64,000 nucleotides of DNA, taken from contig CP142730.1 of assembly GCA_036630325.1 (NCBI GenBank), positions 806,001-870,000 of the forward strand, written 5' to 3'. The notes beneath the pieces are model-generated. The model was not told the DNA's origin and made no database searches. It saw only the letters and a program-made list of their open reading frames with translations. The position numbers were made by a program, and so were the translations under genes. The stretch is from Vairimorpha necatrix (Eukaryota). Of this stretch, positions 11,719 through 42,806 are shown piece after piece (the first letter of the stretch is position 1; each line of letters starts with the position of its first letter).

Positions 11719-12648
11719 ATGCGGCTAGTAAGGACTCAAAAAGAATACGATCAAATTGTAGCTTTCCTCAAGGGGGAGATTTCCCCTAAGGAAGTTGGCT
11801 CTAAAAAAAAATTTCATCTAAAAAAGAAGTCTGAATATTTCATTCTTATAGACGACATTCTTTTCCTTAAAGTTTCAAATGGAGCCCATAAAAAAGTATT
11901 AGTAACAGATGATTTGGAAACTCTAAAGGAAGAAGCACGGAAGATCCATAACCAAGGCCATTTAGACTCTTTTCGTCTCTTTAAAAGGTGCACAGAATTA
12001 TATCATAATATTCCAAGAAGTATTACAAAAGAGGTGTTCGGGGAATGCGATGTCTGCAACGGGCATCTTCCCAAAGTTGAGGAAAAAAGTAACGAACTTT
12101 TGGCTTATAGACCTTTTGAAAGGATAATACTTGATCTTGTCGATATGAAGTCTTATAGCGACCAAAATGATGGGATGAGTTGGATACTCACGGCGTTAGA
12201 TGTACGCACAAAGTACGCTTATACATCTGCCTTGGAGACCAAAGCTCCCGTCGAAATAGTAGCACAATTAGAAAAGACCTTCTACATGCTGGGCTTTCCT
12301 AGTGTGCTTCAATGTGAAAGAATACAGGAGTTTAGGGATACAAAAATGGTAGAATTTTGCAAAAAACATAAAATATTGCTTATTAATCAAAGGCGGTGTG
12401 ATTCCCAGTATAGCAGGCAGATTAAGAGGTTTATACAGACTCTTAATAGATATCTGCAGAAGCATCTGCACGGGGAAACAGGGGCAAATAGTAAGAGGTG
12501 GACTATGATTATTAATAAAGTTGTTTATGACTATAACACTGCCGTACATTCTACTACGAGAAAGTCGCCTTTTATGTTACTCTTTGGAAGACTTGGATAT
12601 AACACGTGCATGAGCATTGATGAAGAAGGGGAAGAAGAGGAAGAGTAA
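11719..12648 (+). CDS. Integrase-derived protein (H2C2 zinc finger plus rve fold, KRBA2/SCAND3/Ginger-like), catalytic residues altered
   Basis: HNQGH...CDVC; ERIILDLVDM; LQCERIQEF in place of LQSDNGxEF; QIKRFIQTL in place of xVERxNxTL; YNTAVHSTTRKSPF. Start context CCCCAATG; acidic tail; no LTR or TIR seen. Confidence 0.85.
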   Translation: MRLVRTQKEYDQIVAFLKGEISPKEVGSKKKFHLKKKSEYFILIDDILFLKVSNGAHKKVLVTDDLETLKEEARKIHNQGHLDSFRLFKRCTELYHNIPRSITKEVFGECDVCNGHLPKVEEKSNELLAYRPFERIILDLVDMKSYSDQNDGMSWILTALDVRTKYAYTSALETKAPVEIVAQLEKTFYMLGFPSVLQCERIQEFRDTKMVEFCKKHKILLINQRRCDSQYSRQIKRFIQTLNRYLQKHLHGETGANSKRWTMIINKVVYDYNTAVHSTTRKSPFMLLFGRLGYNTCMSIDEEGEEEEE

Positions 12649-15347: not shown

Positions 15348-17570
15348 ATGAAAATTTTTACTTATTTATCTGTATTATTTTTTACACGAGAATGTCAACA
15401 TGTGTATAATAAGCTTAATACTGCAATAATAAATAAAATAGATGAAGGAGACTACTGCACAATAAATTTAGAAAAACGATACATGATAGTCTACTTATCT
15501 GAAGACTATTTATCATCCGGGACTGAACTAGACATAAAAATAAAAATTTACAATTCTAATAATGAACTAAAATGTCATACTATAAAAATTAAACAGGGTT
15601 ACAAAGAACCTAAAGATTTGTTCCATGAGATTGAAGACAATATATTAAATGCACATATAAAGTACAACCCTAACCATATCATATTAATATACAGTAAGGA
15701 AAAGTTTAGGTCGTCAGAAATTTTTAAGAAAATAATCATGCTATTAAAAGAAGCAAATAATAAGATCAAAGAAAATTTTTTTAAGCCGGATTTTTATTAT
15801 ACATACATTATTAGAAGTGATTTTTTGTGGGGAAGAATGTTTGAAAAAATAAGAGACTTTAGTATTGATGGAAATGATGAACCAATTAAAATCCCCGTTA
15901 TATATGTAAGAAGGAAGGATAAAGATGTTAAACGTCGTATAAATCTATGTATTAGAGCCGAAAAAATATTTTATTTTTTTGAAATCAATCTTCAAGAACT
16001 TGATCCCGAAAAGCTTGTATCTTTGTTTGAGTGGAAATCTTCTTATGTTAATAATCCCGAAAAAAAGATAGGTACTTATTTTTACGATTTACATAAGCTC
16101 GTATATGTTAGTGAGATTGATACAAGGCCTTCATGTTTCTGGATTTGTACATCTAAAAAAATTACTATGGCCAAAACTAAATTTAAAATTTTTATGTTAA
16201 AAGATAAAATAAAATTTAAACAGAAGGCTGGAGATTTCATTTATTCACTGAATACAAATTCAAACGTTAACAGTACAACAATGATTATTAAAAATGAAAT
16301 TTTTACGGAATTTAAAGAAATATTTAAAGAAATATCTGTAATAGAAAATGAAGACATTATTGTAAAAAGTATTGGTATGTTATATAAAGTTATGGAAAAG
16401 GGAAACAAATTATTGTTTCTACTAGGAAGAATTCTTAGTAGGCCAGGCGCAGCTTTAAATATAATCTTTGCCCATTTTTTATTGCATCATGGAATAATAG
16501 ATGGAAATGAACTAAATAAAATAATAGGAAAAGATGAACAAGCTGAATTTAACAAGACCCAACTTTTAGAAAAAATATTAAAACATACGCCCAATTTTTA
16601 TTCAATTAAATTTTGTCTACTCTTGGAATTCGAACGCTACATAAATGAAAATGACGTTAAACACGACAAAATATTTAGTACATTTATTAAAATTTGGGAT
16701 CTTATTCGATTAAAAGAGCAAAATCAATCGAAATCTTCGATTGATCCATACAAAAAACTAGGAAAAGATAATATTTATGTTACAAAATTATATTATGAAG
16801 TTTTAGGTTGGCATAATATCGATATTAAAGAATTTAAATATGACGTATGGCTTCATATTCTAAAGTTAGCAACATTATTTACAGAATCAGAAAATAATTA
16901 TTGTGAGTGTAAATGGGTCAAATGTGATACCATAAAAAACGACATCATAACTAATTATAAATTGAAAAAAAACGATATATTACAGAATAATGAACTAATT
17001 AGAGCAAAATTACTAGGAAGTACGCGAAAAGATTCTGAAAAAGAAAAATCTATGAAAATAATACAAAAAATACACAAACTAATACAAAGAGTTTCATTAA
17101 ATAAAATACTAACAGTTGATTCAAATAAAGAAGTAAAAAATATATTTTATGATAAAGTAAGTTTAAAATTTGAAAAGGAGTTAAGAGAAGAAGGCATAAA
17201 AGCAATGGAAGAAATATATAATAATTTAAGAATAAAAGTATTATTTAGAAAAATTGAAATTGTAAATCCAAATTTAGTAAATGAATATAAAAACAAGGAA
17301 ATAGAAAACTTCTTTCACAAATTAAATCTCAATATAAAAGCTAATATAGAAAGAAGTTGCGTAAGTGAATTGCCAAAGATTGTTAAAACATTATTAGAAT
17401 GTGAAATAAAAAATAATAAAACACTAAAAGCAAGACATCAACTAAGCATAAAGAAAATTAGAAAGAAGTTGCCTATAAAAAAAAAATTACATATTTTTAA
17501 CGAAGTTTCGGGCATTAAATTGCATGATGAATCTGTAAAAGTAATAGAAGACAAAATTTTTTCGATCTAA
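15348..17570 (+). CDS. ~740-aa signal-peptide protein, expanded family paralogue 1
   Basis: Hydrophobic N-terminus. Shares YNKLN..I.NKI, YxFE, KxCLxxExExYINEND and terminal GxxLHxxxxKV with the ORFs at 21144, 27257-33441 and 40536. Start context CCCCATG. Confidence 0.88.
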   Translation: MKIFTYLSVLFFTRECQHVYNKLNTAIINKIDEGDYCTINLEKRYMIVYLSEDYLSSGTELDIKIKIYNSNNELKCHTIKIKQGYKEPKDLFHEIEDNILNAHIKYNPNHIILIYSKEKFRSSEIFKKIIMLLKEANNKIKENFFKPDFYYTYIIRSDFLWGRMFEKIRDFSIDGNDEPIKIPVIYVRRKDKDVKRRINLCIRAEKIFYFFEINLQELDPEKLVSLFEWKSSYVNNPEKKIGTYFYDLHKLVYVSEIDTRPSCFWICTSKKITMAKTKFKIFMLKDKIKFKQKAGDFIYSLNTNSNVNSTTMIIKNEIFTEFKEIFKEISVIENEDIIVKSIGMLYKVMEKGNKLLFLLGRILSRPGAALNIIFAHFLLHHGIIDGNELNKIIGKDEQAEFNKTQLLEKILKHTPNFYSIKFCLLLEFERYINENDVKHDKIFSTFIKIWDLIRLKEQNQSKSSIDPYKKLGKDNIYVTKLYYEVLGWHNIDIKEFKYDVWLHILKLATLFTESENNYCECKWVKCDTIKNDIITNYKLKKNDILQNNELIRAKLLGSTRKDSEKEKSMKIIQKIHKLIQRVSLNKILTVDSNKEVKNIFYDKVSLKFEKELREEGIKAMEEIYNNLRIKVLFRKIEIVNPNLVNEYKNKEIENFFHKLNLNIKANIERSCVSELPKIVKTLLECEIKNNKTLKARHQLSIKKIRKKLPIKKKLHIFNEVSGIKLHDESVKVIEDKIFSI

Positions 17571-21143: not shown

Positions 21144-23387
21144 TTATTTATTATCTTTATTAATTGCTAAAACTTTTATCAAATCATTGTGTAACCCTAT
21201 TCCAGGGGTTCCATTTAAAACTTCAAACAAATCTTTTTCATTCAACAAAGATCGAATAATAGTTAAGTATTTTTCACAGCTTTCTTTTCTAGATTTAACA
21301 GAGTTAAATAATTTTATTAAAGCTTTTGGTAAATTTTGTTTGGCTTTATTTATTCTATTTTTATTTACATTAGATGTTATGTATTTTTTAAAACATTGCT
21401 TTAATTTTCTCTTATAATCATTGACTAGTTTTTCGTTATTGTTTAGTGCGAATATTTTTTTAATGTAGGTTGTTTCTTTTTTAAACACATGTTTTTCAAA
21501 TATGTATTCGATTATCTTAATTCCTTCCTTTATTAGTGCATTTTCAAATTCAAGTCTAACATTTTCATCAAATATATTTTCTACGTTTTTAATTAAAGCA
21601 TTCATAAGTTTTTCATTCAATAATTGTTTTAAAGATGTTTTTTGCAATATTTTCGTTATTTTCAGTGTTCTTATTTCTTTAATTTTTCTTCGTTTTTCAA
21701 AAATTTTATCTTCCCGATTATTTTCAAACAATTTTTTTGATATGCCTTTGCTACATTTGCTTATTTCAATTTTATCTAATCCAAGAGATTCAATAATTTC
21801 ATCTTTGGTGAGACTTATCTCATCATATCTACTTTTATACTTACTTAATCCTATGAATAATGAAGTTATTTTACACACATGTTTAATGAACTCTATTTTG
21901 TAGTTTATAATATTATCGATTTGAATATTTACCACTTCTTGTATAATTTTCGCAATTCTAATATTTTCTCTTTTACTTTTCATTGTGGCACCATTTGTAT
22001 TATTTTTTGTATCAATAAAATTACCAATCTCCTTTAAAGTAATAAATAACGGGCAGTCAATTACGTCATTTTCATTTATAAAATTCTCTGCCTCAATTAA
22101 TAGACAAATTTTTATTAAAAAAAATTCTAAACGTCTAGTTACAGGAGAAATTGTCGATATAATATATATAACATTTTCTATCATTTGTTCTTTTTCGTTG
22201 TTCTGCCTCTTTCCTATTAATGTATGAAAACTATACGATTTTATCAGTTTGCCGTACATTAATAAATGTGCAAATATTAATTTTAGAGCAGATCTTGGTG
22301 GTTTGAAAATTCTCATAACCAAAAAATCTATTTTTTTATTTTTGACTAACAATCCAAAAAACATTTCCACTCCTTTACCACTGTCATTGTTTTTAATTGC
22401 TTTGATATTTTCCAAAACTTCTTGAAGTTTAGAAAAACATTGATTCTCAATATAAGTTTTGCTACCATATTGTTTTGAGTCATCTTTTATGCAGTATAAA
22501 TGTTCAATAGACCCATCATTAATACTTAAACTATGTGAATGCAATTCGATTTTCAAATACGGATATTCTATTTCGATTATTCTAGGCGTACATTTTAGTT
22601 GACGCGGCACAGAATAAGTATCAAGCAAATTTACATCATGTGTTTTATAAAATACAAGCAGTTTTTTAAAAATTTCTTCATCAAATTTATTCTTAAGATT
22701 TATATTAAAATTTTTTAAATATTGAAATTTGTCCATATCAAAATCTTTGACATCCAATTCAAATAAATAATGAACATTCTCTATGCTCATGCGAAATCTG
22801 ACAAACAATCCATTATTTTCCAGAATGTAATAAATCCGAGCAGCAATAGCACTAAAATCACGTCCTTTGATATCTATACCATTTTTAATTTCATTGAGCA
22901 CTTCAGCTAAATAACTATTGTTATCACATATATTGTCATAATAAATTTCCCAACCGTTCTTATTTTCTCTTCTCTCTTGGTTAATATTACTAATATTTTC
23001 TATAACATCTTTAAAAAATGAACAATTTTTAATAGTTATTGAGTCATATATTAAGTTAACTGACTCTTCAATTGGAAATTTCAACATACTTCCTAAATAT
23101 ACTTCAATGTCTTCAGTGATGTCAATCAGAGATTTGTCTTCATAGAGAAACATAAAATTCCTTGTAATTTTTTTACTATCATCAGATAAATTTTGTTCTA
23201 TGTCTAAGTGTATCATTTTTTCACTTTCAATAAAACGGATAGTCACTTTAGTAATGGGTTTCTTAGGTATATAAATAGAATATTCTCTGTTTATTATTTT
23301 GTTCATTATAATATTACTGATTTCATTGGACATTATCTGGTTAGTTCGAATACGTATAAATGAAAAAAAAAATATCGAAAGTTTCAT
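21144..23387 (-). CDS. ~747-aa signal-peptide protein, family paralogue 2
   Basis: Same family motifs (YLFELDV, IKICLLIEAENFINENDVID, GIGLHNDLIKVL). Confidence 0.88.
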   Translation of the reverse strand: MKLSIFFFSFIRIRTNQIMSNEISNIIMNKIINREYSIYIPKKPITKVTIRFIESEKMIHLDIEQNLSDDSKKITRNFMFLYEDKSLIDITEDIEVYLGSMLKFPIEESVNLIYDSITIKNCSFFKDVIENISNINQERRENKNGWEIYYDNICDNNSYLAEVLNEIKNGIDIKGRDFSAIAARIYYILENNGLFVRFRMSIENVHYLFELDVKDFDMDKFQYLKNFNINLKNKFDEEIFKKLLVFYKTHDVNLLDTYSVPRQLKCTPRIIEIEYPYLKIELHSHSLSINDGSIEHLYCIKDDSKQYGSKTYIENQCFSKLQEVLENIKAIKNNDSGKGVEMFFGLLVKNKKIDFLVMRIFKPPRSALKLIFAHLLMYGKLIKSYSFHTLIGKRQNNEKEQMIENVIYIISTISPVTRRLEFFLIKICLLIEAENFINENDVIDCPLFITLKEIGNFIDTKNNTNGATMKSKRENIRIAKIIQEVVNIQIDNIINYKIEFIKHVCKITSLFIGLSKYKSRYDEISLTKDEIIESLGLDKIEISKCSKGISKKLFENNREDKIFEKRRKIKEIRTLKITKILQKTSLKQLLNEKLMNALIKNVENIFDENVRLEFENALIKEGIKIIEYIFEKHVFKKETTYIKKIFALNNNEKLVNDYKRKLKQCFKKYITSNVNKNRINKAKQNLPKALIKLFNSVKSRKESCEKYLTIIRSLLNEKDLFEVLNGTPGIGLHNDLIKVLAINKDNK

Positions 23388-23952: not shown

Positions 23953-25189
23953 GGTACCACAATACCCCTCCCCCCTCTGGGGGTGTTTACTTTATTTTTT
24001 CGAACCCCAAAATCGAAGTGCAAAAAAGGAGGAGCAGGAAGGGGACAAAAACTACTAGAACTTTATGAAAGTAAAAATACATAATAAAATGACTTAAAAT
24101 TGAATTTCAACCCAAATTTTGTCTCTAAATATATGATATAAAAAAATTAAAATTTATACAAATTTATCTACTTTATCCTAGTTTTTATTTAATAGCCCTT
24201 AAAAATGACAGATCTCTATAAGGATGTCGAGAAAATAATGGAAAAAATGATTTTAAGTACATTAGAAGGCAGATTTTGCCCATTATGTCTTGGAAATGTA
24301 CATCGACGTTTGGAAATACAAAATCAAATGCGTTGTACCACAAAAAGCTGTCGAAAAGAATATACAATAACTAAAAAGAAGCCTTTATTATGCTTAATTG
24401 TCTTGGTTAAAAATATGCCAGGTTCTATATCTATTGTTTGAAAATACAACTTTCAGAATGGTAAAAAACCTACTTAATATCCACAAAAAACAATCTATAG
24501 AATTATCAGAAAATGTAGTATACATATATTGTTAATATTATTATTGGAGGACCAGGTATAATTGTTGAAATGACGAATCTAAATTCGGAAAGAGACAAAA
24601 CAACAAAGGCCACAAAGTTGACGGTGTGTGGGTAATTGGGATGGTAAAAAGAACAGCCGAAAAAAGTCTAGTGCTTCTAAAAGTAAAAAATAGAAAAGCC
24701 GAAACTCTTGAAAGATAAATAAAAAAATATGTAAGTCCCGGAAGTATTATATTTAGTGACTGTTGGAAAGGTTATATAAATTTAAATCAATTGGGGTTTT
24801 AAAAACACATCACTGTTAACCATTCTCTTGGTTTTATAAATCCAGAGAAGGGTGTTCATACTAATTCGATTGAAGGGAGATGGGCTGGTGTTAAAAGAAT
24901 GATTCCTGCCAGAAATCCGACTGAAAAGGAAATAAATCGTTATCTTCATTTTTTTACTTTAAAAGAAATAATCCCATAAATACGTTCGAAATGTTAATAT
25001 AAAAGACATTTTACTACCACATCTTAATTTAAAATCAATTTTTGTATCTAAAAATATAATTAATTACTATTTTTACTATCATAAAGTTCTAGTAATTTTT
25101 GTCCCCTTCCTGCTCCTCCTTTTTTTGCACTTCGATTTTGGGGTTCGAAAAAATAAAGTAAACACCCTCAGAGGGGGTACTGTGGTTGC
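23953..25189 (+). mobile_element. Merlin-type DNA transposon with ~120-bp TIRs and a decayed transposase
   Basis: TIRs ~23953-24080 and ~25068-25189 are near-identical in inverted orientation. The interior gives CPLC...C, IGGPGIIVE/DESKFGKR, DGVWVIG, SDCWKGY, VNHS and GVHTNSIEGRW, with stops and frameshifts. No TSD found. Confidence 0.9.
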
Positions 25190-27256: not shown

Positions 27257-30200
27257 TTAAATTATATTTATTAATTCATCTTCTAATACTTTTGTCATTT
27301 TGTTGTGCAAAATAAGCCCTTCATGTCCACAAAAAAGCTTAAATAATTCATCTTTCGACAATATTGAATTTAATTTAGAAAAATCTTGCTCTAGATTTTT
27401 CATTATAATTGATTCATTTTTCAATTTATTTTCAAATAGAGCTATTAAAATAATGGGTAATTTTTTCTTGCAACATTTTTTCACATTTTCCTCAATATTG
27501 TTGCTTAATAGAGCATAGAACTCTTTGTTTAATTCCTTTTTATATTCATTAATTATTTGTTTATCATATTTGTCAAATGTTTTATTTGGATTTTCCATCC
27601 CCTCTTTCGGAAATGTTTTTAAATACTTTTTGTAGCCAATCAAATCTGTCCATTTGTAAGAATATGATTGGTCAGCATTTGATCGGCTACGACACCCCCT
27701 CAATCAGTCTTCGACGTGTCCTTCTTAATATGACTTATGTTAACTCTCAATTCGCCTGCTGAATTTTTCCTTTTTACCAGAAATGCGTCTTCACTTAAAA
27801 TTTTGACAATAATATAACCAGGTGACCATTTAGCTTCTAACTTTCCACTTCCTGGGTAATCTCTGTAAACTAAAACATCTTCTCCTATTTTAAACTTTTG
27901 CTTTATATCTTTTTTCCCTTTAACGATGTATTTGCTGTATTTTTTAAAGTTTAAGTCCCTCTTCCGTAAAAGTTCTTGCTTCGTATAGGTCTTAGGGGTA
28001 ACTCCTATTCTCTCATCTATGGCTGTTGTTATTTGCTGACCGTATTTTAGAATGTACGGCGACGTTCCTATTGATCGGTTAAACGATAGATTTACTGCCA
28101 ATGTAGCTTCTTTGACAACTTTCCTCCAGCCAATTTCGCCATAGTTTGCTAATTTTCTAATTTTGTTCGTCAATGTTTGTATGACCCTCTCAACCGCGCC
28201 TGTAGTCTGGTGATGGTATGGCGAACAAAATTCCCATGATATATTATACTTTGAACCTAATGCTTGTACCACGCTGTTATCAAACTCTAAGCCGTTGTCT
28301 GTCAAGATTCTTTCGGGTATCCCATGCTTACTAATGATTAATTCTTCGATCGCCTTATATATTTCACAGCTCTTTTTGCTTCGTAAGATCTTGGTTTCTA
28401 TCCATTTAGAGTAGTGATCGATCGCTACAAATATGTATCCGCTTCCGCTGTTGTCCGAAAGTTTTCCAAGCAGATCAAATTCCCACAGCTGATTGGGTCT
28501 TTCTGAAAGTATTACTTTGTTCTTTGTCTTCACGCGTTGATATCCCGAACGAAGACATGTTTTGCAATTGCTTACGAATTTCGAAATGTCTTGGTGCATT
28601 GTTTTCCACTTATGTGCCTGTGAAATCATAAATTTCATGGTATTTGATGTCCCATGCCCTGATATTTTATGGTACTCCTCTAGTATGTCGTTGATGTTAT
28701 TATTCGATAACTGATGTAAATCAATGTTACATGTTTCACACTCTTGGTGAAATCTACTAAAGCCATCAGCAATGTTATGCTCTCCTTTTATATACTCCAA
28801 TTCGAAGTCGTATTCCGCCAATTTGAGTGCCCATCTGAGAATCCTACTAGTTGGATCCTTCACTGTCCATAGATAGATTAAGGCTTTGTGGTCTGTTCTG
28901 AGCGTAAATTTGCTTCCCAAAAGGTAATGTCTAAAATGTTCTATTCCTTTAACCAAGCCAAGAAGTTCTTTATCGGTAACTGAATAATTCTTCTGACAAT
29001 TATCTAGTCTTTTGCTAAAGGCGGCTATCATTTTTTCAGCTCCAGTTTTGTTCTTTTGCAGCAGCACTGCTCCTATTCCCGTTTCAGATGCGTCAGTAAC
29101 CAGAATGAATGGAGCTTTAAAATTTGGCTGTGTACGTATTGTATTTTGGCTTAGTACTTTTTTAACGGTTTTAAACGTATCCAGCTGTTTGTCAGTAAGT
29201 TTAATTTTTTTACCAGATGTCTGTTTTTCGCCCTTAAGTACATCATACAAGGGTCCCGTAATTTCTGCCATCTTTGTCACAAAATCCCTGCAATAGTTGG
29301 CCATTCCTAGAAAACTCCTTAATTCCTTTATGGTGGTAGGAATTGGGTACGCTTGTATATCCTTAATGCGCGTTTCGTCTACCTTTATGATTCCGTTTCC
29401 AATGACGTTCCCCAAGATCTTTATTTCCGATCTAAAGAATTTACACTTTTTCTTATTAAGCGATAGATTTGCCGCTCTTATTTTTCCCAATACTATTCTC
29501 ACATGTTTCTTATGTTCTTCCTTGTTCCTTGAATATATTATAATATCGTCTAAGTATGGGATCACAAAATTATGGTTTTCTTTCCTGAATATATTGTCCA
29601 TTGCCCTTTGAAATGTTGCTGGGGCGTTACATAGTCCGAACGGCATACGATTAAATTCGTATAATTTCCCCCTATACGAAAATGCTGTCTTTTCCTTGTC
29701 TTCTTCTTGTAAAGGAATTTGATGGAATCCACTAGTCGCGTCCAGTATTGTAAAAATAGTTGCAGTTGATAGACTGTCAAAAATCTCGTCGATTCTAGGT
29801 GTCATGTATGCGTCCTTTACTGTTATGCTATTCAGACCTCTATAGTCTACGCACATTCTCCATGTTTTGTCAGGCTTCGGTACCATCAGTATTCTGCTAC
29901 ACCAGGGACTTCTGCTTTCCCTTAAAATTCCAAGTTCTAGGAGTTTGTTGATTTCTTCATTTACGGCTTCTTCTTGTGATACTGGTATTCTTCCGTTCCT
30001 TTGGCAAATTATCTTCGTACTGTTCGTCTGTATACGATGACTACCTGCAGTGCAGAGGTTATAGTCGCTTATTTCTGTTTTGAAGACGTCCTCGTACTCT
30101 TTCAAAATTTTGTTCTCTTCTAAATCACATGCGGAATTCGACATTTGGTTGATTCTATATTTTGGTGCATTTAGAATATCTAAAATCAGTTTTTTATTGT

Positions 30201-33200
30201 CGCATATTACATTTGCTCCTATTATAACATATTTTATGTCTTTGATTATTAAGGGTGAGAAGATCACACCTTTTCCATTAATTTCGATTATACAGTCTTT
30301 TAAATAGCCTTCTATTTTTAATATTTCATTTCCTATACCTTTTACTACGCCATTATATCTAATAATCTTATTACGTTCTTCTTGTGGAATATCATTGTAA
30401 TTTATGACCGAAACATCGGCCCCAGTGTCTAGTAGTACTTTCGTATTTTTATTAAAGAGACGGCTTTCCACAAAAAATGGGTTAAAACTATTTTGTATAT
30501 GATGTAAATAGAATTCAATTTCTTTATTGTCATGATCTTTCTCGTCACTTTCGTATTCTTCAACGGCATTTATATTTTTTCTCTTCAAGTTGTTTCTTTC
30601 TCTATTGAGTATTATGGTAAGTGCTTTGCAGTCTCTTGTGGAATGGTTACATTCCCCGTGGAGTGTGCACCGTTTATTAGTATGCCGCGGTAGTTTTTCA
30701 TGGGTTATGTTTCTTTTAAATCCTTTTTCTTTGTAAAAATTAGTGTGGGGCCCTCTGCCCGCGTTGTCGTGTAGCTTAGTCCTAGCTAACATCTTATCGG
30801 GATATGGAATCCACGATATCTCCTCCGCCTTTTGTATAAATCCTTGCCACGTCTGGACAGTAGTTGCGGTCTGGTATAACAGAGCTTTTATCTCCATTGG
30901 TGATTTATTAATTACCATTTGGCACAAAGCGTCCAAATTTATAAGAGATCTCTCATATATTACAGTAGCTTCCTGTAGCATCTGCGAGTAATCTTCTCTC
31001 GTTTCCGGGACCATTATTGAGAGGAACCTGCTTAGTGTTATATCGTTGTTCTTATACGATCCAAATCTTTTCTTTATTAAATGAAGTATTTCCTCTAAGC
31101 TGACTGTCTCCATTTTCCCGCCTAATGTCTGGGAAGCCCATGATAATGCTTTCCCCCTGAGCTTGCTCACCAATGCCGCTTTGAATTGATCATTGGTCCA
31201 TTTCGAAACTTCCCCTACCAACATTATGTCTCTCAGCCAGACATTTACATCCTCACCTGCTTCTCCTGTGAAGCATCCGACATTGTTTGTCGTTGTCGCC
31301 ATGTCAAATGTTTTATTTGGATTTTCCATCCCCTCTTTCGGAAATGTTTTTAAATACTTTTTGTAGCCAATCAAATCTGTCCATTTGTAAGAATATGATT
31401 GGTCAGCATTTGATCGGCTACGACAATATTTATCCAGCATTTTACATGTATTAAATGTTGTTTTATTATATTGAAATGTTTTTTCAATTTTGTTTTTCCC
31501 AATTTCAATATATGTTTCCTCAAAATTTAATTTTACCTCTTCATCATATAAATCATCTATCTCTAAACTGTAAACATCATTCATAATTTCATTAAATAAT
31601 TTATTGAATATTGATTTGGTCAATTTTCGTAAAATCCCATTTATCTTTCCTTTATATAGGTTTATTTCTATTTCGCTTGATGTTTTTTTCCTATTTTCTT
31701 CTAAATTCTTTTCTAATCTATTAAAATATTGGAATTCGATCTTTTCGGCATCTTCTTGCGAATTTTTAGTAATTTCTTTCTTAATTATCTTAATATTGTT
31801 TTCTATTGTACTTTCATTCAATCCAAAATTATTGACAACTTCACGTTTTAGATTATAAAAATGATTGCTCCTTAATACATATGTATTTTCTTCAAATCCA
31901 GTAAATAATGACGACAATTCTAGAAATAAAGTCAATATATAATCTTTATGATTTGTAATATCTTTTAGGTGATGTTTTAGAAATTCTTGATTGATTTCTA
32001 ACAAATCGGTACTATCATCATAAGATGAATTGTTAATATTGTTTCTAGTATTTTTTCTTGACACAACTAGTTTTCCTAAATGTTTTAAAGAATTGAATAT
32101 TGGGTCATCAATATTATTATTATTATTTATATATTTTTCTGCTTCTAAAAAAATACAGATCTTCATTATGTAAATATTTGAAGAATATTTTTGATTGTCT
32201 GTTTTTTTCAAAAATTGGCTAATAAGTTGTTTCTTTCTCATTTTGTCTAGTTTTTCGCTGCCTAAAATAATTTTAATTTCATTTTCTGATATTATTTTTT
32301 GACTTAACAGGAGGTGGGCAAATATAATATTTATGGCAGTCCCTGGATTATTTATTATCTTGCCTACAAGAAATCCTAGTTTTTTTTTATGTCTTAATAA
32401 TCTATAAAATAATTCAACAGCTTTTACGTATTCATCATTTTGCTCTATCACATAAATTTTTTTAAATAAATTTCTAAATTCTAAAAGAGATTTTTCTTCG
32501 ATGTTTATTTCATTGGAGATAGGAATTAATCGTTTTCTTGTTGAATAAACAAAGCAGTCTTGATCTTGCATGATTCGTATTTCATTATTGTAAATCTTTA
32601 TTTCGAAAGTACCATTTATCAATTTTATTTCATTAAATTTAAAAACTTCAAAACGATGTTGTATATATAAATCGCTTTCATCAATTAACATAAACTTATA
32701 TAGTTCATGAAAATGCTTACCGATCCTAATATCGGTATCATTAGTATGTGAAGATATAAAACTTACACTAGATAGAAGTGATTTTTCATAAACTTCATTA
32801 AGATCTACTTCAAATAAGTAAAATATATTATCAGTTTGTATACTTAAATTCAAATAACATTCACTGTTAATCTCAGTTATCATGATTGGTATTTTGTATG
32901 TATTTGAACTAGATTTAAAGTATTTTAAATCACATGCGATTTGAATTATCGTTCTATTCCACAAACCACAATGATCAATTATAATATCATAATAAATTTC
33001 GGGGCGCATATCCATTTCTTTTCTCTTAAGATTCTCTTCCTTTAGATATTTGATGATCTTTTGGTAGGTTTGATTATCTTTACAATATTTTGGATCGTAT
33101 ATTAAAATTATAGCATCTGCGAGATGTTTTATATATTCAATTAATAATTTTCCCTCAAATTCTTCAACAATAGATTTTATAGATTTGTCATCTATAGCGA

Positions 33201-33441
33201 TTGTTATTTCTTCTAGTTCCTCATTTTTATTCCAAGGGTATGTTACCATTGTCAGTTTTGCATTTATTTCATATAGACTCAAATCCAAATTAAGTATTAC
33301 TTTTAAATATCTGTTTTCAATATTAATTATAGAATAATCTCGCCTAACTATTTTATTCAACAATGTAATATTGAGTTTATCATATATAAGATCAGATGCT
33401 TGTAAAAAATTAATAAATAAAAGTATTTGAACAATATTCAT
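27257..33441 (-). CDS. Family paralogue 3 (774 aa reconstructed), interrupted by a Ty3/gypsy element and read as a 1913-aa in-frame fusion
   Basis: Host codons 1-672 (33441-31426) are in frame with the LTR (41 codons) and Gag-Pol (1200 codons). The remaining 102 host codons lie at 27565-27257 (DKQIINEY...GLILHNKMTKVLED). Start context CCCCCATG. Confidence 0.9.
27571..31425 (-). mobile_element. Full-length Ty3/gypsy LTR retrotransposon (3855 bp)
   Basis: Identical 124-bp LTRs (31302-31425, 27571-27694; TGTC...GACA). 5-bp TSD AATAT (31426-31430, 27566-27570). PBS TGGCGACAACG; PPT GAGGGGG. Confidence 0.97.
27700..31302 (-). CDS. Single-ORF Gag-Pol polyprotein (Gag, CHHC knuckle, protease, RT, RNase H, integrase)
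   Basis: Motifs CTLHGECNHSTRDC; LLDTGADVS; LDATSGFHQ, RMPFGLCNAPATFQR, YLDD; VTDAS; H..H..C..C, TDNG, AVER. The PR-RT-RH-IN order is that of Ty3/gypsy. Confidence 0.97.
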   Translation of the reverse strand: MATTTNNVGCFTGEAGEDVNVWLRDIMLVGEVSKWTNDQFKAALVSKLRGKALSWASQTLGGKMETVSLEEILHLIKKRFGSYKNNDITLSRFLSIMVPETREDYSQMLQEATVIYERSLINLDALCQMVINKSPMEIKALLYQTATTVQTWQGFIQKAEEISWIPYPDKMLARTKLHDNAGRGPHTNFYKEKGFKRNITHEKLPRHTNKRCTLHGECNHSTRDCKALTIILNRERNNLKRKNINAVEEYESDEKDHDNKEIEFYLHHIQNSFNPFFVESRLFNKNTKVLLDTGADVSVINYNDIPQEERNKIIRYNGVVKGIGNEILKIEGYLKDCIIEINGKGVIFSPLIIKDIKYVIIGANVICDNKKLILDILNAPKYRINQMSNSACDLEENKILKEYEDVFKTEISDYNLCTAGSHRIQTNSTKIICQRNGRIPVSQEEAVNEEINKLLELGILRESRSPWCSRILMVPKPDKTWRMCVDYRGLNSITVKDAYMTPRIDEIFDSLSTATIFTILDATSGFHQIPLQEEDKEKTAFSYRGKLYEFNRMPFGLCNAPATFQRAMDNIFRKENHNFVIPYLDDIIIYSRNKEEHKKHVRIVLGKIRAANLSLNKKKCKFFRSEIKILGNVIGNGIIKVDETRIKDIQAYPIPTTIKELRSFLGMANYCRDFVTKMAEITGPLYDVLKGEKQTSGKKIKLTDKQLDTFKTVKKVLSQNTIRTQPNFKAPFILVTDASETGIGAVLLQKNKTGAEKMIAAFSKRLDNCQKNYSVTDKELLGLVKGIEHFRHYLLGSKFTLRTDHKALIYLWTVKDPTSRILRWALKLAEYDFELEYIKGEHNIADGFSRFHQECETCNIDLHQLSNNNINDILEEYHKISGHGTSNTMKFMISQAHKWKTMHQDISKFVSNCKTCLRSGYQRVKTKNKVILSERPNQLWEFDLLGKLSDNSGSGYIFVAIDHYSKWIETKILRSKKSCEIYKAIEELIISKHGIPERILTDNGLEFDNSVVQALGSKYNISWEFCSPYHHQTTGAVERVIQTLTNKIRKLANYGEIGWRKVVKEATLAVNLSFNRSIGTSPYILKYGQQITTAIDERIGVTPKTYTKQELLRKRDLNFKKYSKYIVKGKKDIKQKFKIGEDVLVYRDYPGSGKLEAKWSPGYIIVKILSEDAFLVKRKNSAGELRVNISHIKKDTSKTD

Positions 33442-34130
33442 GGGGGTATAATTTTCGAATTTGCTTTATGTTAATAATAAATATAAAAAAAAAAACTAAA
33501 AAAAAGAAATTGAAATAAACCTCGTCTTATTGATAATCAAAAATTTTACAACATAGTATTAGAAAGATTTTTTGATTAAAAAAATATTTTGACAGCTTTC
33601 AAGATGCCTTCTAGATTATATCAGAGCATGACATAATCATTAAATTTATAAAATAAAAAAAGCAAAAATACAACAGAAAATTATAAAACTCACAATTCAT
33701 TTTATTATAAATGCATAAACTAAAAAGTTAAAAATTCATTTTTTAAAAGTAAAAGTAAGGGAAAATAATACATGGCTGGCAGATATTCAGTCGTCCTGCG
33801 ACCTACCGTTTAAAAATCAACAACCAAAAAATATAATCCGAAAAGAACAAAAACTAGAGAAAATATAACGTCAAAAGGCATAAAAAATAAACGGAGCTGG
33901 GATCCGAAAGACCCCCCCCCCTCTGAGGGTGTTCACTTTATTTTTTTGAACCCCCAAAACGAAGTGCAAAATAAAGGAGGAGCAAAGAAGAGACAAAAAT
34001 TACTAAGCACTTATGATATTAAAAATAACAAATAAATACATGCTTTTATTCAAAATTTAATTTTAAATTTAGTTATAATAATCATTTAAAGTGTTGTATC
34101 TTTTTTGCCCTTCTTATTTTTTCCATTTTT

Positions 34131-34203
34131 TTTTAATTGTTGGTTTATTATAAAAGTAGATTTTTGAAGAAAATCTACTTTTATAATAAACCAACAATTA
34201 AAA
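34131..34203. repeat. Perfect palindrome, 34-bp arms, 5-nt loop
   Basis: TTTTAATTGTTGGTTTATTATAAAAGTAGATTTT-TGAAG-AAAATCTACTTTTATAATAAACCAACAATTAAAA. Confidence 0.95.
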
Positions 34204-34288
34204 TTATTAATATTATTTATATAAGAAAATTTAAATAAATGTTCAACGATCTATACAGATTGTTAAATCAAAAAATTTAATTTAAAAT

Positions 34289-36370
34289 TGTCATGTATCC
34301 GGGGTACATGGCCATTTTTATAATATCTCTCTAAATAGTTTTTAATGTAAATATGTTTATTGATGGTTTTAGTCTCTCTTGGATTCTATATATTCCATAC
34401 CCTTCACAGACAGACTTTCTTTTATAGTTTATTTTTAATTTAAAGATTCTTGTCAACACTAAACTACAAACATTGGCGTACTTACGAATGTAGTAACGAC
34501 CATGCAACTTTCGTTTGTTTGTTTGTGCGACTCATCTTGACATGTAACTTGAAATGCTTGACATGTCTTTGGAAATCAGTGACAGATGACATATTTGACA
34601 TCTGTTCATGTGATGTAGCAATGTACATCACATTCTGCCCTCTCCTAAAGCTTTAAATTTTTTAAAGTTCTCCATTCATTGTTGCATGTTGCTGACCACC
34701 CTTCATGTTTAGATATTATATTCGGCGGGTCTACTATTGCTTTATCTATAACCCTACTTAACATTTTTTGCTTTTTCTTCGTGTTTATACTTTCTAATAT
34801 TTCATTTTTTTTCTTTCTTATTTTATATGTCTTCTTTTGTTTATATTTATCACGGTATTTTATTTTTATTAATTTATTACCTCGATTTCTTTTATTATCA
34901 TCTTTTTTATTTTCTTTTTCTATATTTTTCATCGGATTGTTAAGCTTCTTGTCAATATCTGTATTTCTTTTGACAATTGAATCCTTCTCTTTTAATATAT
35001 TTGTTCCAACTACATTCTGTAGTTTCTCATGACTAAGCGTTTTCGCTATTATTTCATCATTTTTCGATGTTTCAAGTTTTGTTTTCACTTCTTTTGAATT
35101 TTCTTTATTAGTTACTTCTTGATTTTTTATTTTAATGTTCTCGACTTTATTTTCTCTATTAAATACTACCTCTTCTGGTATGTTATTTTTCTTTATTTCT
35201 CTAATTGTAAATAATTTTTCTGGAACAATATTCGGCATTTTTATGTTTTCTAAATTTTTCTTAAGCTGCTCTGAGGTATTGTTTAGTCTAAAGCAATCCT
35301 CTGTATTGTGCGTACTGTTTTTATGGAGGCGGCACCATTTATTGTTCTTGTAACCGTCCTTTTCGGTCTCAAACTTGAATCTATCATTATGAACTGATTC
35401 ATATGTTATTTCACGCCTTTTTCCTTCAAAAATCAAACACTCTTCCACTGTTTCTAAATACGTCATGGTTTCTTCGACGTTATTTTTTCCAAGCTCTAAT
35501 ATCTTAAGACGAGTGGAAAAACCTAATCCCAAGAAAAAACTCTCTCTTAACTTTCTTTCGTATTCTTTTCTCGTTAAGTTTTCTAGTCTAGCATACTGAT
35601 CTACTAGATTCTTTATTTCAAACAAATATTCTTTAATGTATCTGAAATTAATTTGTTTACATGCCTGTAGCTTTAAATGTAGCATCTCAGGACTTGATCT
35701 TTGACTTACATTTTTTTCAATATATCTTCTTATTTTTTCTAAATCTGGTAATCCAAATATTTGTTGCAATGTGGGATCTCGCACTAATTCTCCTAAGGCG
35801 ATTTTTTCTTTTTTAAAATCCCATTTTTTATTTCTGCTGATTTGGTTGAAATCCTCAAACCATGTATCTAGCTCCATTTCATTATATTCTTTTATGTTTT
35901 TTATTATACTTAAGTTTTTTTTTACTTCTAAATCGATCTCTTCGATCGTATACTTAAATTCTAACGCTTCTTTAATTACTGCGTTGTTGTCCCCTTTTGA
36001 TACTTTGTGGGAATTGAATTCAATTATGTCATGTATCCGGGGTACATGGCCATTTTTATAATATCTCTCTAAATAGTTTTTAATGTAAATATGTTTATTG
36101 ATGGTTTTAGTCTCTCTTGGATTCTATATATTCCATACCCTTCACAGACAGACTTTCTTTTATAGTTTATTTTTAATTTAAAGATTCTTGTCAACACTAA
36201 ACTACAAACATTGGCGTACTTACGAATGTAGTAACGACCATGCAACTTTCGTTTGTTTGTTTGTGCGACTCATCTTGACATGTAACTTGAAATGCTTGAC
36301 ATGTCTTTGGAAATCAGTGACAGATGACATATTTGACATCTGTTCATGTGATGTAGCAATGTACATCACA
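34289..36370 (-). mobile_element. Non-autonomous gag-only LTR retroelement (2082 bp)
   Basis: Identical 344-bp LTRs (34289-34632, 36027-36370; TG...CA). TSD AAAAT on both sides. PPT AGGAGAGGGCAGAA. No pol. Confidence 0.93.
34645..35877 (-). CDS. Gag-like protein with CHHC knuckle and Lys-rich tail
   Basis: LDTWFEDF...W, KQINFRYIKEY, FFLGL and WCRLHKNSTHNTEDC; lies between the LTRs. Confidence 0.85.
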   Translation of the reverse strand: MELDTWFEDFNQISRNKKWDFKKEKIALGELVRDPTLQQIFGLPDLEKIRRYIEKNVSQRSSPEMLHLKLQACKQINFRYIKEYLFEIKNLVDQYARLENLTRKEYERKLRESFFLGLGFSTRLKILELGKNNVEETMTYLETVEECLIFEGKRREITYESVHNDRFKFETEKDGYKNNKWCRLHKNSTHNTEDCFRLNNTSEQLKKNLENIKMPNIVPEKLFTIREIKKNNIPEEVVFNRENKVENIKIKNQEVTNKENSKEVKTKLETSKNDEIIAKTLSHEKLQNVVGTNILKEKDSIVKRNTDIDKKLNNPMKNIEKENKKDDNKRNRGNKLIKIKYRDKYKQKKTYKIRKKKNEILESINTKKKQKMLSRVIDKAIVDPPNIISKHEGWSATCNNEWRTLKNLKL

Positions 36371-37644
36371 AAAATATGTTAAGTTATTTAGAATTATATA
36401 GTTTTATGGTTATATTCTTTTTTTAAATTAAATTTCGTATACAAATATATAATTATTTGGTATTTTTACTGTTTAAAGATGCAAGTAATTTGAGTGCTAA
36501 TGATTGCTCCTCCTTCATTTTGCACTTCGTTTTGGGGGTTTAAAATAATAAAGTGAACACCCTCAGAGAGGAGCATTTGGGTCCCCAATTCCAATAAATA
36601 AGAAGGGCAAAAAAGATACAACACTTTAAATGATTATTATAACTAAATTTAACATTAAATTTTGAATAAAAGCATGTATTTATTTGTTATTTTTAATATC
36701 ATAAGCGCTTAGTAATTTTTGTCTCTTCTTTGCTCCTCCTTTATTTTGCACTTCGTTTTTGGGGTTCAAAAAAATAAAATGAACACCCTCAGGGGGGGGG
36801 GTTTATTAGCCCGTTTAGCCAAATAAACATTATGGGGAAATTATAGACTGGGGTTTGACGACCCAAAAAGAGTTTTCGTAAGCCAAATGTCCATTTATTT
36901 TTCTAAAAATCCTTTCTCCGGGCCGTGTATGAATTAATTTCATTTTTGTGGATGTAAAACATAGTACAAATTCCTTACATTACAAACTTAGAAAAAGAAG
37001 GAGAATATTTATGGAACAAACTTCTCTTGTGCCCAGGGCGATCTTAGTACTATTGATGACCTGCCACTAGACATACAATTTTGGGGTTCTCTCAACTTAT
37101 TATTACATACATATTTTAAGATTCAGTTTGAAAAAATTTTATGTGGATATACAAAGTTTTAAAAAGTGTGGTATATGTGCAAATGTTTGTGGAAAAGTAA
37201 AACGCCCTTTATATATGTGTTGTTGGTATTTTTTGTGCTAAAAAACCAAAAACAAAATGTAAAAATAATTATTGAATAATTTAAATTTTAAAAATAATAA
37301 ATAAAATTGTTTATATACAAAATTCAATATAAAATCATGCCATTACAACTAAATATATCTTAATTACTGTTTTGAGGAAAACCTATCTGAAATTTTATTT
37401 TTGTTATTATAATCATTTTATAATGTACAATATGGGTTTTATTGTTCGACTTTGCACGGTTTCTCTTTATAGTTACTTTATTAATGTTAAAGATAATTGT
37501 AAGTTAAGGGTTAAATTTATTAAATATATATTCTCAACAATTACATATTAAAATTAAAAAAAATCACTTAGTATAATTAACAAAACGCACAAAAAAAAAA
37601 CAAAATGTATAGTGCAAGCAAATGCTCAATGCGGCTAAAGTGCA

Positions 37645-40535: not shown

Positions 40536-42806
40536 TTAATTTATTTTTTCCTGATCCTCTAATACTTTCGTCATTTTATTATGCAATGCAACCCCTTCGT
40601 GTTCATTAAGCAACCTCGATAATTTGTTTTTAGACAATATTGAACAAATTTGATGCAGAGTTTTCTCCTTATTTTTAGGTGTAACCCAATAATTTTTCAA
40701 TTTAATCCCGAATAAATCCACCAAAACAACATTTAAATTTTTTTCACACCAAATAAAAACAATTTTCTTGATATCATTGGTTACTTTTTGAAAGAAATTT
40801 TGTCTTAATTCGTTTTCATACTCAATCATAAATAGATTATCATATACATTTAACATAGCACACAAATTTTTCATTATTTTATCGAACTTAAATGTATTTT
40901 CGATTTCTTTTTTCCCTATTTCTCTGAGTTTTTTTTCGAATTTGGTGGTTAGATCTTTAATAATTAAATCATCTACTTCTATTTTATAAGCTGCTTCCAT
41001 AATTTCATTAAACAATGTATTAAACATCGATTTGTTCATTTTCCGTAAATTTTTTTTTATTTCTAATTCTTCACTTATTGTTTTCTCCTTTATTTCATCT
41101 AAAATAATTTTTATTTTATTATAATATTGCAATCTTGGCTTTTCGTCATCTTCTTTACAGTTTTCGACCAATTTTTTCTTGATAATTGCAACATTTTTTT
41201 CTATTTCTTTTTTATTTATCATAAAATCTCTAAGGACTACGTAATTTTGTGTATAAAACCGATTAGAAAGTAGTTCACATTGATTTTCTTCTAATCCAGT
41301 AAATAATGAGGTCGTTTTAATATAATATGTCAAAACTTTCTTTGTATAATTTGAAATTTCCTTCAAATGAAAATTTACTATTTCTTGGTATATTTCAAAC
41401 AAATCTATATTATTATTTTTATTTTCATCTTTATGATATTTAGACTTAATTAGTTTTCCTATTTCTTTCAAAGAATCAAATATTTTGTCATTTATCGTAT
41501 CGTTTTCCTTTAGATATTTTTCTGTTTCTAAAAAAAGGCAAATCGTTATTAGGTAAATAGCCGGAGCATTTACATCAAGTTTTAATTTTTTTACTAATGT
41601 TTTTGCAATCTCACTTTTAATCAGCTCATCATGCTCTATATTATTATTTACTTCATTTTCTCCAATTATTTTCATATAAAACAAAAGATGTTTTAGTAAT
41701 ATATGTAATGCCGTTCTTTTTTTAGACAAAATTCTCTTGATTAAAAATTCTACTTTGTCTTCACTTTTTACTAATCTAGAAAAAATTTCGAATCCTTTAG
41801 CGTACTTATTGCTTCGCTTTACCAAATGCAATTTTTTAAAAATTTCTTGAAATTCATGATAACATGATTCGGTAATAATTAGTTTCCGTTGTGGACCAAG
41901 ATCGTTATTTATTACATATACAAATTCAAAAGCATTGTGGCGAAATAATATCATGTCATTTTTTATCTCTAGCATAAATTTTTTACATGATGATCTAATT
42001 ATAGAATTTGATGATGGTTCCAATGAATAGGTAAAGCAAGAATTCACACTTTCAATATAAAAAGAAGCTTTATACAAATTTAAGATACGTTTACAAATTA
42101 TTTGATCAGTATTGTTTTTAAATGGCGTCTTTACTTCTATCAAATTCAAATTTTTTTCCACATCAAACTCAGCAACATTTACCTCAAAAAAACAACATAT
42201 ATTATTTATAGGAATGAAAAAATTTATATAGGATTCGTCATTTTTTTTTATATAAATAATTTGTGAATTAAGTATAAGTAAATTGTCTCCATTTCTGTTA
42301 CTTTCAGCTAATGTTAGCGTTTTAGCATACAAACTACGCTGATCAATGATATATTCATAAATTATATCTGGTCGAACAATCGAATTCTTTCTTTTACAAT
42401 TTTCTTTTTCCAAATGATTAATTATTTCTAAAACTATATTGCTTCTAATTGTAAACGAAGATAAATAAGTCAATACAATTGCATCTGTTTGATTTGATAC
42501 ATATTCATCTAATACAATATCTTCGAAAACTTTGATCATATCTTCGAGAGTTTGATTATTACATTTAAGTTTAAAATGTTTATATTTTTCACTGACAATG
42601 ATATTGAATGTTGTTTTGATAGAAACGTAAAGTACGTTGGTATCGTCTTGAAAACGTAGGTTAATTATCATGTATTGTTTTTCTAGGTTAATAATTTTGT
42701 ATTGTTTATTTTGTATCTTATTGTTTATTATAATGTTGAGTTGATCATACACACGTTGACATCCTTGTATAAAGAACATAGCAAAAAAAATATTGATAAT
42801 TATCAT
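40536..42806 (-). CDS. ~756-aa signal-peptide protein, family paralogue 4
   Basis: Same motifs (YDQLNIIINNKI, ICLFLETEKY, SLFTGLEEN, EGVALHNKMTKVLED); closest to paralogue 3. Start context CCCACATG. Confidence 0.9.
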   Translation of the reverse strand: MIIINIFFAMFFIQGCQRVYDQLNIIINNKIQNKQYKIINLEKQYMIINLRFQDDTNVLYVSIKTTFNIIVSEKYKHFKLKCNNQTLEDMIKVFEDIVLDEYVSNQTDAIVLTYLSSFTIRSNIVLEIINHLEKENCKRKNSIVRPDIIYEYIIDQRSLYAKTLTLAESNRNGDNLLILNSQIIYIKKNDESYINFFIPINNICCFFEVNVAEFDVEKNLNLIEVKTPFKNNTDQIICKRILNLYKASFYIESVNSCFTYSLEPSSNSIIRSSCKKFMLEIKNDMILFRHNAFEFVYVINNDLGPQRKLIITESCYHEFQEIFKKLHLVKRSNKYAKGFEIFSRLVKSEDKVEFLIKRILSKKRTALHILLKHLLFYMKIIGENEVNNNIEHDELIKSEIAKTLVKKLKLDVNAPAIYLITICLFLETEKYLKENDTINDKIFDSLKEIGKLIKSKYHKDENKNNNIDLFEIYQEIVNFHLKEISNYTKKVLTYYIKTTSLFTGLEENQCELLSNRFYTQNYVVLRDFMINKKEIEKNVAIIKKKLVENCKEDDEKPRLQYYNKIKIILDEIKEKTISEELEIKKNLRKMNKSMFNTLFNEIMEAAYKIEVDDLIIKDLTTKFEKKLREIGKKEIENTFKFDKIMKNLCAMLNVYDNLFMIEYENELRQNFFQKVTNDIKKIVFIWCEKNLNVVLVDLFGIKLKNYWVTPKNKEKTLHQICSILSKNKLSRLLNEHEGVALHNKMTKVLEDQEKIN

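Follow-up and report, generated by a model that had tools for sequence, protein, structure and literature searches.

How a retroelement that encodes Gag and Pol in a single reading frame obtains an excess of Gag, and what becomes of that frame when it is joined to a host gene, are the questions raised by a locus of the microsporidian Vairimorpha necatrix (GenBank assembly GCA_036630325.1, contig CP142730.1, positions 806,001 to 870,000; this whole stretch of 64,000 nucleotides is termed the window, and all coordinates refer to it). A minus-strand open reading frame (ORF) at 27700..33441 encodes 1,913 amino acids free of internal stops; its first 672 codons belong to the host, the next 41 to a long terminal repeat (LTR) and the last 1,200 to Gag-Pol, opened by an ATG whose A is the last base of the LTR. 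The inserted element, a Ty3/gypsy retrotransposon of 3,855 bp, interrupts a gene of secreted type directly behind codon 672. This arrangement, together with the identity of the two 124-bp LTRs and the absence of stops in their gag frame, had been described in an initial annotation and is borne out by the ORF, its translation and direct computation from the sequence. The excess of Gag in single-ORF LTR elements is a standing question, to which frameshifting, read-through and splicing are known answers; selective degradation is a further known route. The explanation that best accounts for the locus as a whole, and that we regard as likely, combines an accidental insertion with a Gag stop codon completed by the poly(A) tail.

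The Gag region (30511..31329, minus strand as for all parts of the element) measures 273 residues if it ends at the proposed site, and displays a capsid domain followed by a CCHC-like zinc knuckle. It is separated from the aspartic protease (30205..30462; PF00077, E 3e-7) by an acidic linker that contains an internal AATAAA (30528-30523, i.e. 30523..30528), proposed to act as a poly(A) signal, 12 nt ahead of an in-frame Tyr codon, TAT (30510-30508, i.e. 30508..30510), proposed to be the cleavage site. Transcription would start near a GGG motif in the 5' LTR, and translation presumably at the ATG just after it. Most transcripts would be cut ~13-14 nt past the linker AATAAA, inside the Tyr codon, where the tail would turn UA into UAA and yield a Gag-only mRNA lacking a 3' untranslated region (UTR), which, if translated, would give the 273-residue Gag. 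The minority of transcripts reaching the 3' LTR would act both as the mRNA for Gag-Pol and as the genomic RNA, with tRNA-Ser as primer. Partial use of one poly(A) site would in this way set the Gag:Pol ratio, in place of frameshifting, read-through or splicing. Such a tail-made Gag stop is likely, if unproven.

Hints of the tail position and of an excess of gag sequence come from contigs of four sequencing runs (X1 to X4), a form of data that cannot show ends or levels. The listing for X1 covered 25 of 1,488 pieces and 18 of 133 loose ends, while the share for X4 was small and was not used. In two X1 contigs a loose run of eight T precedes 30509, which on the minus strand corresponds to a tail added 13-14 nt after AATAAA, inside TAT, making UAA; the DNA downstream of the cleavage site is not A-rich. 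X1 depth, calculated as a sum over contigs and thus inflated by overlaps, is 285,000-469,000 over gag and 609-714 over mid-pol, and climbs toward the 3' LTR via single contigs of 609, 2,755, 5,345 and 16,579 to reach 68,000 at the 3' end of the element, spanning 98 to 469,204 within 7 kb. The profile resembles that of poly(A)-selected RNA, and it is from this profile that we take X1 to be RNA. The single X3 contig covers only 30575-31319, and X2 displays even cover that continues through pol. No near-identical gag-only copy was found in the assembly, where all 11 copies at ≥98% extend into the protease; the depth step is therefore not explained as DNA. Likewise, all 14 matches to the site pattern fall at element copies, and no A-tailed gag-only retrocopy was detected in the assembly. 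Of the 13 joints listed, none shows splice-type ends at the Gag/protease boundary, although contigs can miss rare forms.

The signal was then compared across the V. necatrix genome, where 42 loci were examined; 33 of these carry protease and reverse transcriptase (RT) in one frame (nine were dropped) and group into 17 families at <85% RT identity, with the window family left out of the test. The motif was defined as A[AT]TAAA, 11-14 nt and an in-frame TAY codon, ≤120 nt before the codon of the catalytic Asp, which was reset by hand in L155 and L159 where the first pick was the wrong motif. It is present in nine of the 16 other families and in 10 of 440 control windows, while resampling of synonymous codons expects 4.7 families (P 0.005, the families not being independent). 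Six of the nine families belong to one clade, limiting their independence. The hexamer is read as AAT AAA or as A ATA AA, can take the form ATTAAA and lies at -99 to -105 or at -51, yet its distance to the Tyr codon stays constant at 12-13 nt. Among families lacking the motif, a one-mismatch version occurs in L144 and L156 alone, and such versions are frequent in control windows as well (125 of 246). A second clade (L146, L154, L155, L164 and relatives), whose primer-binding site (PBS) matches tRNA-Ala(AGC), carries its poly(A)-stop motif only 51 nt ahead of the catalytic Asp. With two positions in two clades, the signal may have arisen or shifted more than once.

Outside this genome, 65 homologues were collected (61 covering ≥80% of the Gag-PR-RT query and four shorter), with V. 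necatrix, animal and plant proteins left out; four of the 65 were dropped for want of a usable protease motif and 61 were scored. The raw sequences had been seen before counting, and the spacer was fixed by the window element. The footprint ([NI]K|[IL][NK])-x4-Y is found in 44 of the 61 homologues, compared with 4-11 at spacers 1-3 and 5-8, and in 37 of 1,172 pol windows; the mean after shuffling is 4.0, and one of 12 control proteins matches. One of the 44 matches falls inside the protease, and 43 remain when the window is drawn more strictly. Between the Tyr and the Asp there are 23-37 residues, and a structural model places the motif in a low-confidence linker (predicted local distance difference test (pLDDT) <50 at residues 250-281). 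The nearest named homologues are those of Nosema granulosis (footprint in 6/6), Pseudoloma (3/5), Pancytospora (3/5), Enteropsectra (3/3) and Nematocida (1/1), and the remainder, unnamed or filed under bacterial bins, were assigned via the tree; median identity in the RT core is 61% (57 proteins). Eighteen proteins lack the Tyr, and four of them have Cys, whose codon would likewise become a stop (UG+A = UGA), while one has Phe. Among 14 DNA loci examined outside the genome, L181 and L188 carry AAT AAA at -99 with a GC content at third codon positions (GC3) of ~0.6, and there AAT for Asn (~0.3) and AAA for Lys (~0.4) are minority codons. TAT follows the hexamer after 12 nt in L188, and TGT does so at 9 and 15 nt in L181. 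Taken together, it is probable that most protease-bearing microsporidian Ty3/gypsy elements set Gag:Pol via a linker AAUAAA and a tail-made stop in a Tyr, sometimes Cys, codon. Scans for relatives of Gag revealed no locus in metagenome contigs, none in viral contigs and one in genome contigs; scans with the RT pattern gave 13 metagenome loci, one of them microsporidian-type with a protease, and no viral loci. L181 and proteins P0003, P0035, P0041, P0042, P0059 and P0121 derive from microsporidian-type contigs within bacterial metagenome-assembled genomes, and such contigs are probably contamination of these bins.

Several observations weigh against a tail-made stop, and some of them also speak for its main rival, in which the footprint is a protein motif, namely a Gag/protease cleavage site or the start of the protease fold, AATAAA arises from AT-rich codon choice, and the depth step and T run of X1 are artefacts of assembly or library. 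The Tyr lies near what we take to be the expected N-terminus, or cleavage site, of a retroviral-type protease. Of the NK dicodons in pol, 55 of 112 are AAT AAA, and NK-x4-Y recurs within the RT of two related families, so that protein constraint can create the motif. Seven of the 16 other families lack the DNA motif, the L137 group retains the Tyr with the hexamer lost, and three older copies of the window family (L012, L013, L018) have lost both. The extension to Cys is post hoc, having been spotted after the data were viewed. X1 carries the label 'DNA?' and none of the runs is recorded as RNA, which says nothing about expression; cover of X1 extends over all 30 bins, with flanking contigs (787 and 1,002) deeper than the host gene (175). 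The tail is 8 nt long in two contigs of one study. In the protein collection, six look-ups gave no exact match to the fused, the Gag-Pol or the Gag-only protein, and the absence of the Gag-only form says little; none of five Gag-sized homologues terminates at the predicted site. The excess of Gag would, under the protein-motif explanation, have a different source, for instance the selective loss of Pol by degradation that has been described for Tf1 of fission yeast. What a protein motif does not readily account for is that five different dipeptides, each able to encode A[AT]TAAA, occur at one spacing with free residues between, that Phe almost never substitutes for Tyr while Cys does, that AAT AAA is retained in two elements with GC3 of 0.6, and that the T run coincides with the base predicted, with DNA behind it that is not A-rich. 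We consider this explanation unlikely.

It could also be that internal polyadenylation is real and serves to attenuate the element, through host control or self-limitation, or amounts to noise from a loose microsporidian 3'-end machinery, the short RNA being a minor source of Gag. AAUAAA use is reported to be stochastic in Encephalitozoon cuniculi (PMC2803860), and the sense strand of the element holds 11 A[AT]TAAA hexamers. Among the loose ends listed, a tail and a depth step were nevertheless seen at the Gag-end hexamer alone, and a stop-forming codon kept at a fixed spacing in five named genera fits only a short RNA that is translated, which renders attenuation or noise quite improbable. 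The tail-made stop makes a specific prediction of one base per family.

The proposed stop resembles the polyadenylation-made Tyr-to-stop change termed PAY* in mammalian EPRS (Yao et al. 2012, as described in PMC4159000), in which cleavage within an internal UAU/UAC codon allows the tail to complete UAA and a C-terminally short protein is produced beside the full-length form. Here, an AAUAAA-type signal lies in the coding region at a fixed distance before a Tyr codon, and cleavage within that codon is hinted at by the T8 loose end at 30509 (two contigs of a run not recorded as RNA). If the reading is correct, the present case differs from PAY* in concerning a mobile element, in constituting the major product, in being conserved across a radiation and possibly in having a UG+A variant. 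The plant Ty1/copia element EVD produces a short shGAG mRNA (Oberlin et al. 2017, PMC5580714; PMC7197481) and shares the use of a single ORF, with a prematurely polyadenylated mRNA for Gag and a full-length RNA for Gag-Pol and the genome. In EVD, however, splicing makes the stop and termination occurs in the integrase, whereas the V. necatrix element belongs to another superfamily and has no evident intron, the joints listed revealing none at the Gag/protease boundary. In nuclear genes of Blastocystis and in mitochondria, UAA is also completed by polyadenylation and the 3' UTR is absent (Klimes et al. 2014, PMC4159000); there the process is obligatory at gene ends and involves a downstream GU-rich element, while here it would be optional, mid-ORF and directed by an upstream AAUAAA. 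Microsporidian Ty3/gypsy elements encoding a single polyprotein are known from Parisot et al. 2014 (PMC4202319) and from Nosema bombycis (PMC2474625), and display the same single Gag-PR-RT-RH-IN ORF and short LTRs. PMC4202319 describes the polyprotein and gives, in the text seen, no route to excess Gag; the word polyadenylation occurs 0 times in its main text. Full-text literature searches, whose coverage excludes most subscription papers, revealed no tail-made Gag stop in any retroelement, an exact-phrase search returned 0 papers, and the parts seen of PMC2474625 and PMC5009743 contain no such mechanism. If true, a tail-made stop would be a further answer to the Gag excess of single-ORF elements, suited to genomes with few introns and minimal UTRs; PAY*, known from few mammalian genes, would become a strategy across a mobile-element radiation, and annotators of microsporidian ORFs should beware of hidden tail-made ends.

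The remaining anatomy of the element is of the Metaviridae type, displaying TG...CA LTRs, a 5-bp target-site duplication, a PBS, a polypurine tract and a Gag with a capsid fold. Pfam domains follow the Ty3/gypsy order, the protease being succeeded by RT (29410..29883; PF00078, E 1.5e-39), RNase H (28810..29196; PF17917/PF17919) and an integrase zinc finger and core (28213..28698; PF17921/PF00665), with no env ORF. A short polypurine tract (27695..27701) overlaps the pol stop codon, and the ORF stops 5 nt short of the 3' LTR. With gag and pol in one frame and an RT that falls within the microsporidian clade (support 0.994, FastTree), separate from the 11 RTs included as controls, the element is a microsporidian single-polyprotein element. 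The Gag model, based on an alignment of 10 sequences, has pLDDT of 70-90 over its helical part, and a fold search returned PNMA2 and dArc capsids as best matches (best E 2.5e-4, the only one with E ≤0.001); a sequence search of the PDB gave nothing below E 0.1. The PBS (31288..31301), translated in frame, can pair over its 14 nt with the 3' end of tRNA-Ser(AGA) (L167), for which a first set of 30 tRNA loci had offered no match longer than 6 nt. Self-priming of the Tf1 type was considered and set aside in view of this match.

The 5' LTR (31302..31425, TG...CA) and the identical 3' LTR (27571..27694) each harbor an AATAAA, which in the 5' LTR forms Asn-Lys codons (31312..31317) and in the 3' LTR (27586-27581) is the presumed poly(A) signal. 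The initial annotation had placed the gag start at the ATG formed by the LTR/PBS junction. That ATG is present, but it probably encodes a second, PBS-borne Met, and Gag probably starts at an in-frame ATG at LTR position 97 (31329), 27 nt upstream and directly behind a GGGG motif, the two together occupying 31327..31333 (ATG 31329-31327; GGG-type core-promoter motif, after PMC2803860). Families whose LTR pair can be recognised mostly have their first ATG within the 5' LTR, often behind CCC or GGG, and an ORF that crosses the LTR end and PBS. The public record P0001 starts at 31329, four of five Gag homologues begin upstream of the PBS-encoded Met, and a depth edge near 31330 provides a further weak hint. 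Motifs of this kind with 5' UTRs <7 nt are the norm described for microsporidia (PMC2803860). Scanning for bacterial promoters gave nothing of use. Within its U3 part the LTR contains a long inverted repeat that folds into a hairpin (31364..31421; second copy 27633-27690) with z = -5.6, and 0 of 200 shuffled sequences fold equally well; the symmetry of this hairpin may be the reason that one antisense LTR frame is also without stops. Joints that skip parts of the element were seen in X1 (27994-28394, 31071-31283 and 27599-31153), one at a depth of 4,732; they lack splice-type ends and possibly reflect template switching or deleted RNAs.

Does the fusion to the host gene have a function of its own? 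The 5' part of that gene (31426..33441, minus strand, 672 codons) belongs to a large family of secreted-type paralogs, some 60 in number and mostly of 740-810 residues, with 67 matches in its own genome. Beyond the 3' LTR, a remnant of 102 codons plus stop (27257..27565, minus strand) resembles the C-termini at eight of 11 paralog loci tested, and the element thus splits one single gene. The insertion is flanked by 5-bp target-site duplications (31426..31430 upstream and 27566..27570 downstream, minus strand). The host signal peptide claimed initially is supported as far as a short hydrophobic N-terminal stretch (best 9-residue Kyte-Doolittle mean 2.3), and the label secreted-type used here derives from hydropathy. 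No window of 19 residues in the host part exceeds 1.6 on the same scale. With a signal peptide but no later stop-transfer segment, Gag-Pol would end up in the lumen of the endoplasmic reticulum, apart from its RNA and primer tRNA, where particle assembly would be blocked. Neither the host part nor one paralog matched Pfam, an Atlas search of the host part was also empty, and among 8,000 candidates scored no relative of the family was found outside V. necatrix. An ATG in the 3' LTR (27598) opens an ORF of 113 residues that continues into the host remnant. Three further family members lie in the window (15348-17570, 21144-23387 and 40536-42806). The public record P0126 agrees with the host protein at every one of 665 residues and ends at 666, probably owing to a predicted intron; no evidence for that intron was seen and it was not used.

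The window copy belongs to a young family comprising at least 10 full-length copies at 99-100% and one at 98%. All 11 young copies have a 5-bp duplication and an LTR without early stops in the gag frame (the first at codon ≥100), and in six the frame is open through all 1,241 codons. Because the family LTR is open in this frame, a fusion results whenever the element enters a gene in sense orientation between two codons, which applies to about one in six genic insertions. Compared with six siblings, the window copy shows 7-12 differences in 3,855 sites, and the four changes found in it alone are all synonymous. It is the only one of the 11 young copies clearly within a long gene; the others comprise L008, which may be genic but would then be out of frame, L010, which sits upstream of a gene, and eight with ≤72 open codons on either side. 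The older copy L015 also lies upstream of a gene. Among the at least 103 and at least 150 RT matches listed, the window copy alone has an open frame longer than 1,339 residues. Likewise, none of 43 further LTR-bearing loci, solo LTRs included and drawn from two sets of 99 and 40 matches, is located in frame within a long ORF. In an older copy, L015, the ATG of the 3' LTR is in frame with a downstream ORF (L175:82-3006, 974 codons open; next Met 44 codons on, no Pfam match), which makes LTR-driven N-terminal extensions of host genes possible.

The initial annotation had proposed that the host promoter could drive a chimera of signal peptide, host protein, LTR and Gag-Pol that is secreted or processed by its own protease (in the strong form of the proposal, to the benefit of parasite or element), while allowing that a very recent insertion might be due to chance. 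The intact frame favors such a chimera, and an X1 contig spanning the junction of 3' LTR and flank indicates that the insertion is present in X1. A feature that chance insertion does not explain, and which counts against a purely accidental origin, is the depletion of gag-frame stops in U3, where 20 of 468 codons are stops compared with 69 of 921 in the other sense frames (P 0.02); U3 is fully open in five of 13 LTR types (2.1 expected), and a stop-free U3 of the window family has a probability of about 7% by shuffling. This depletion is weak, the LTR types being related, and six of the 13 types have an LTR whose length, taken with the duplication, is divisible by three, near the one third expected. 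The fusion is a single case with no private non-synonymous change, and any read-through RNA would have to pass the LTR AATAAA (31317-31312) and the internal gag site, which would make the full chimera, destined for the lumen, the rarest product. No joint representing an empty site was listed (the contig of X1 found at the 3' junction has its start within the LTR, and contigs drop rare variants), and the junction at 31426 is unbridged among the X1 contigs listed, with thin cover at 31480-31596; such holes prove nothing and were not used. A working or selected secreted chimera is accordingly scarcely credible, whereas the suggestion of chance holds well: the locus is very probably a very recent, unselected insertion of an active-looking family, and the 1,913-residue frame a by-product of an open, Gag-coding LTR. 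The domesticated PEG10 and PNMA genes (PMC5009743) likewise have a protein of retroelement origin that is read in frame from a host start, and the Gag fold resembles PNMA2/Arc. Those genes are old, fixed and devoid of LTRs, in contrast with the identical LTRs and ten near-identical siblings observed here, where the old insertion with decayed LTRs that domestication would entail was not found. The host fusion carries little weight unless read-through RNA is demonstrated.

Other parts of the window also contain probable mobile elements. At 33914-36801, terminal inverted repeats of 209 nt (97%) flank an ORF (34645-35877) without Pfam match, and a shorter relative lies at ~23970-25180; the pair resembles a DNA transposon with its non-autonomous derivative. 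A GC-richer ORF of 745 residues without Pfam match (43857-46094) and an ORF of 309 residues with a weak integrase-core match (11719-12648) are probably mobile-element genes. A repeated RT-bearing ORF of 1,242 residues, with a longer RT match, occurs at many sites in the genome and probably represents a young non-LTR family of the long interspersed element (LINE) type.

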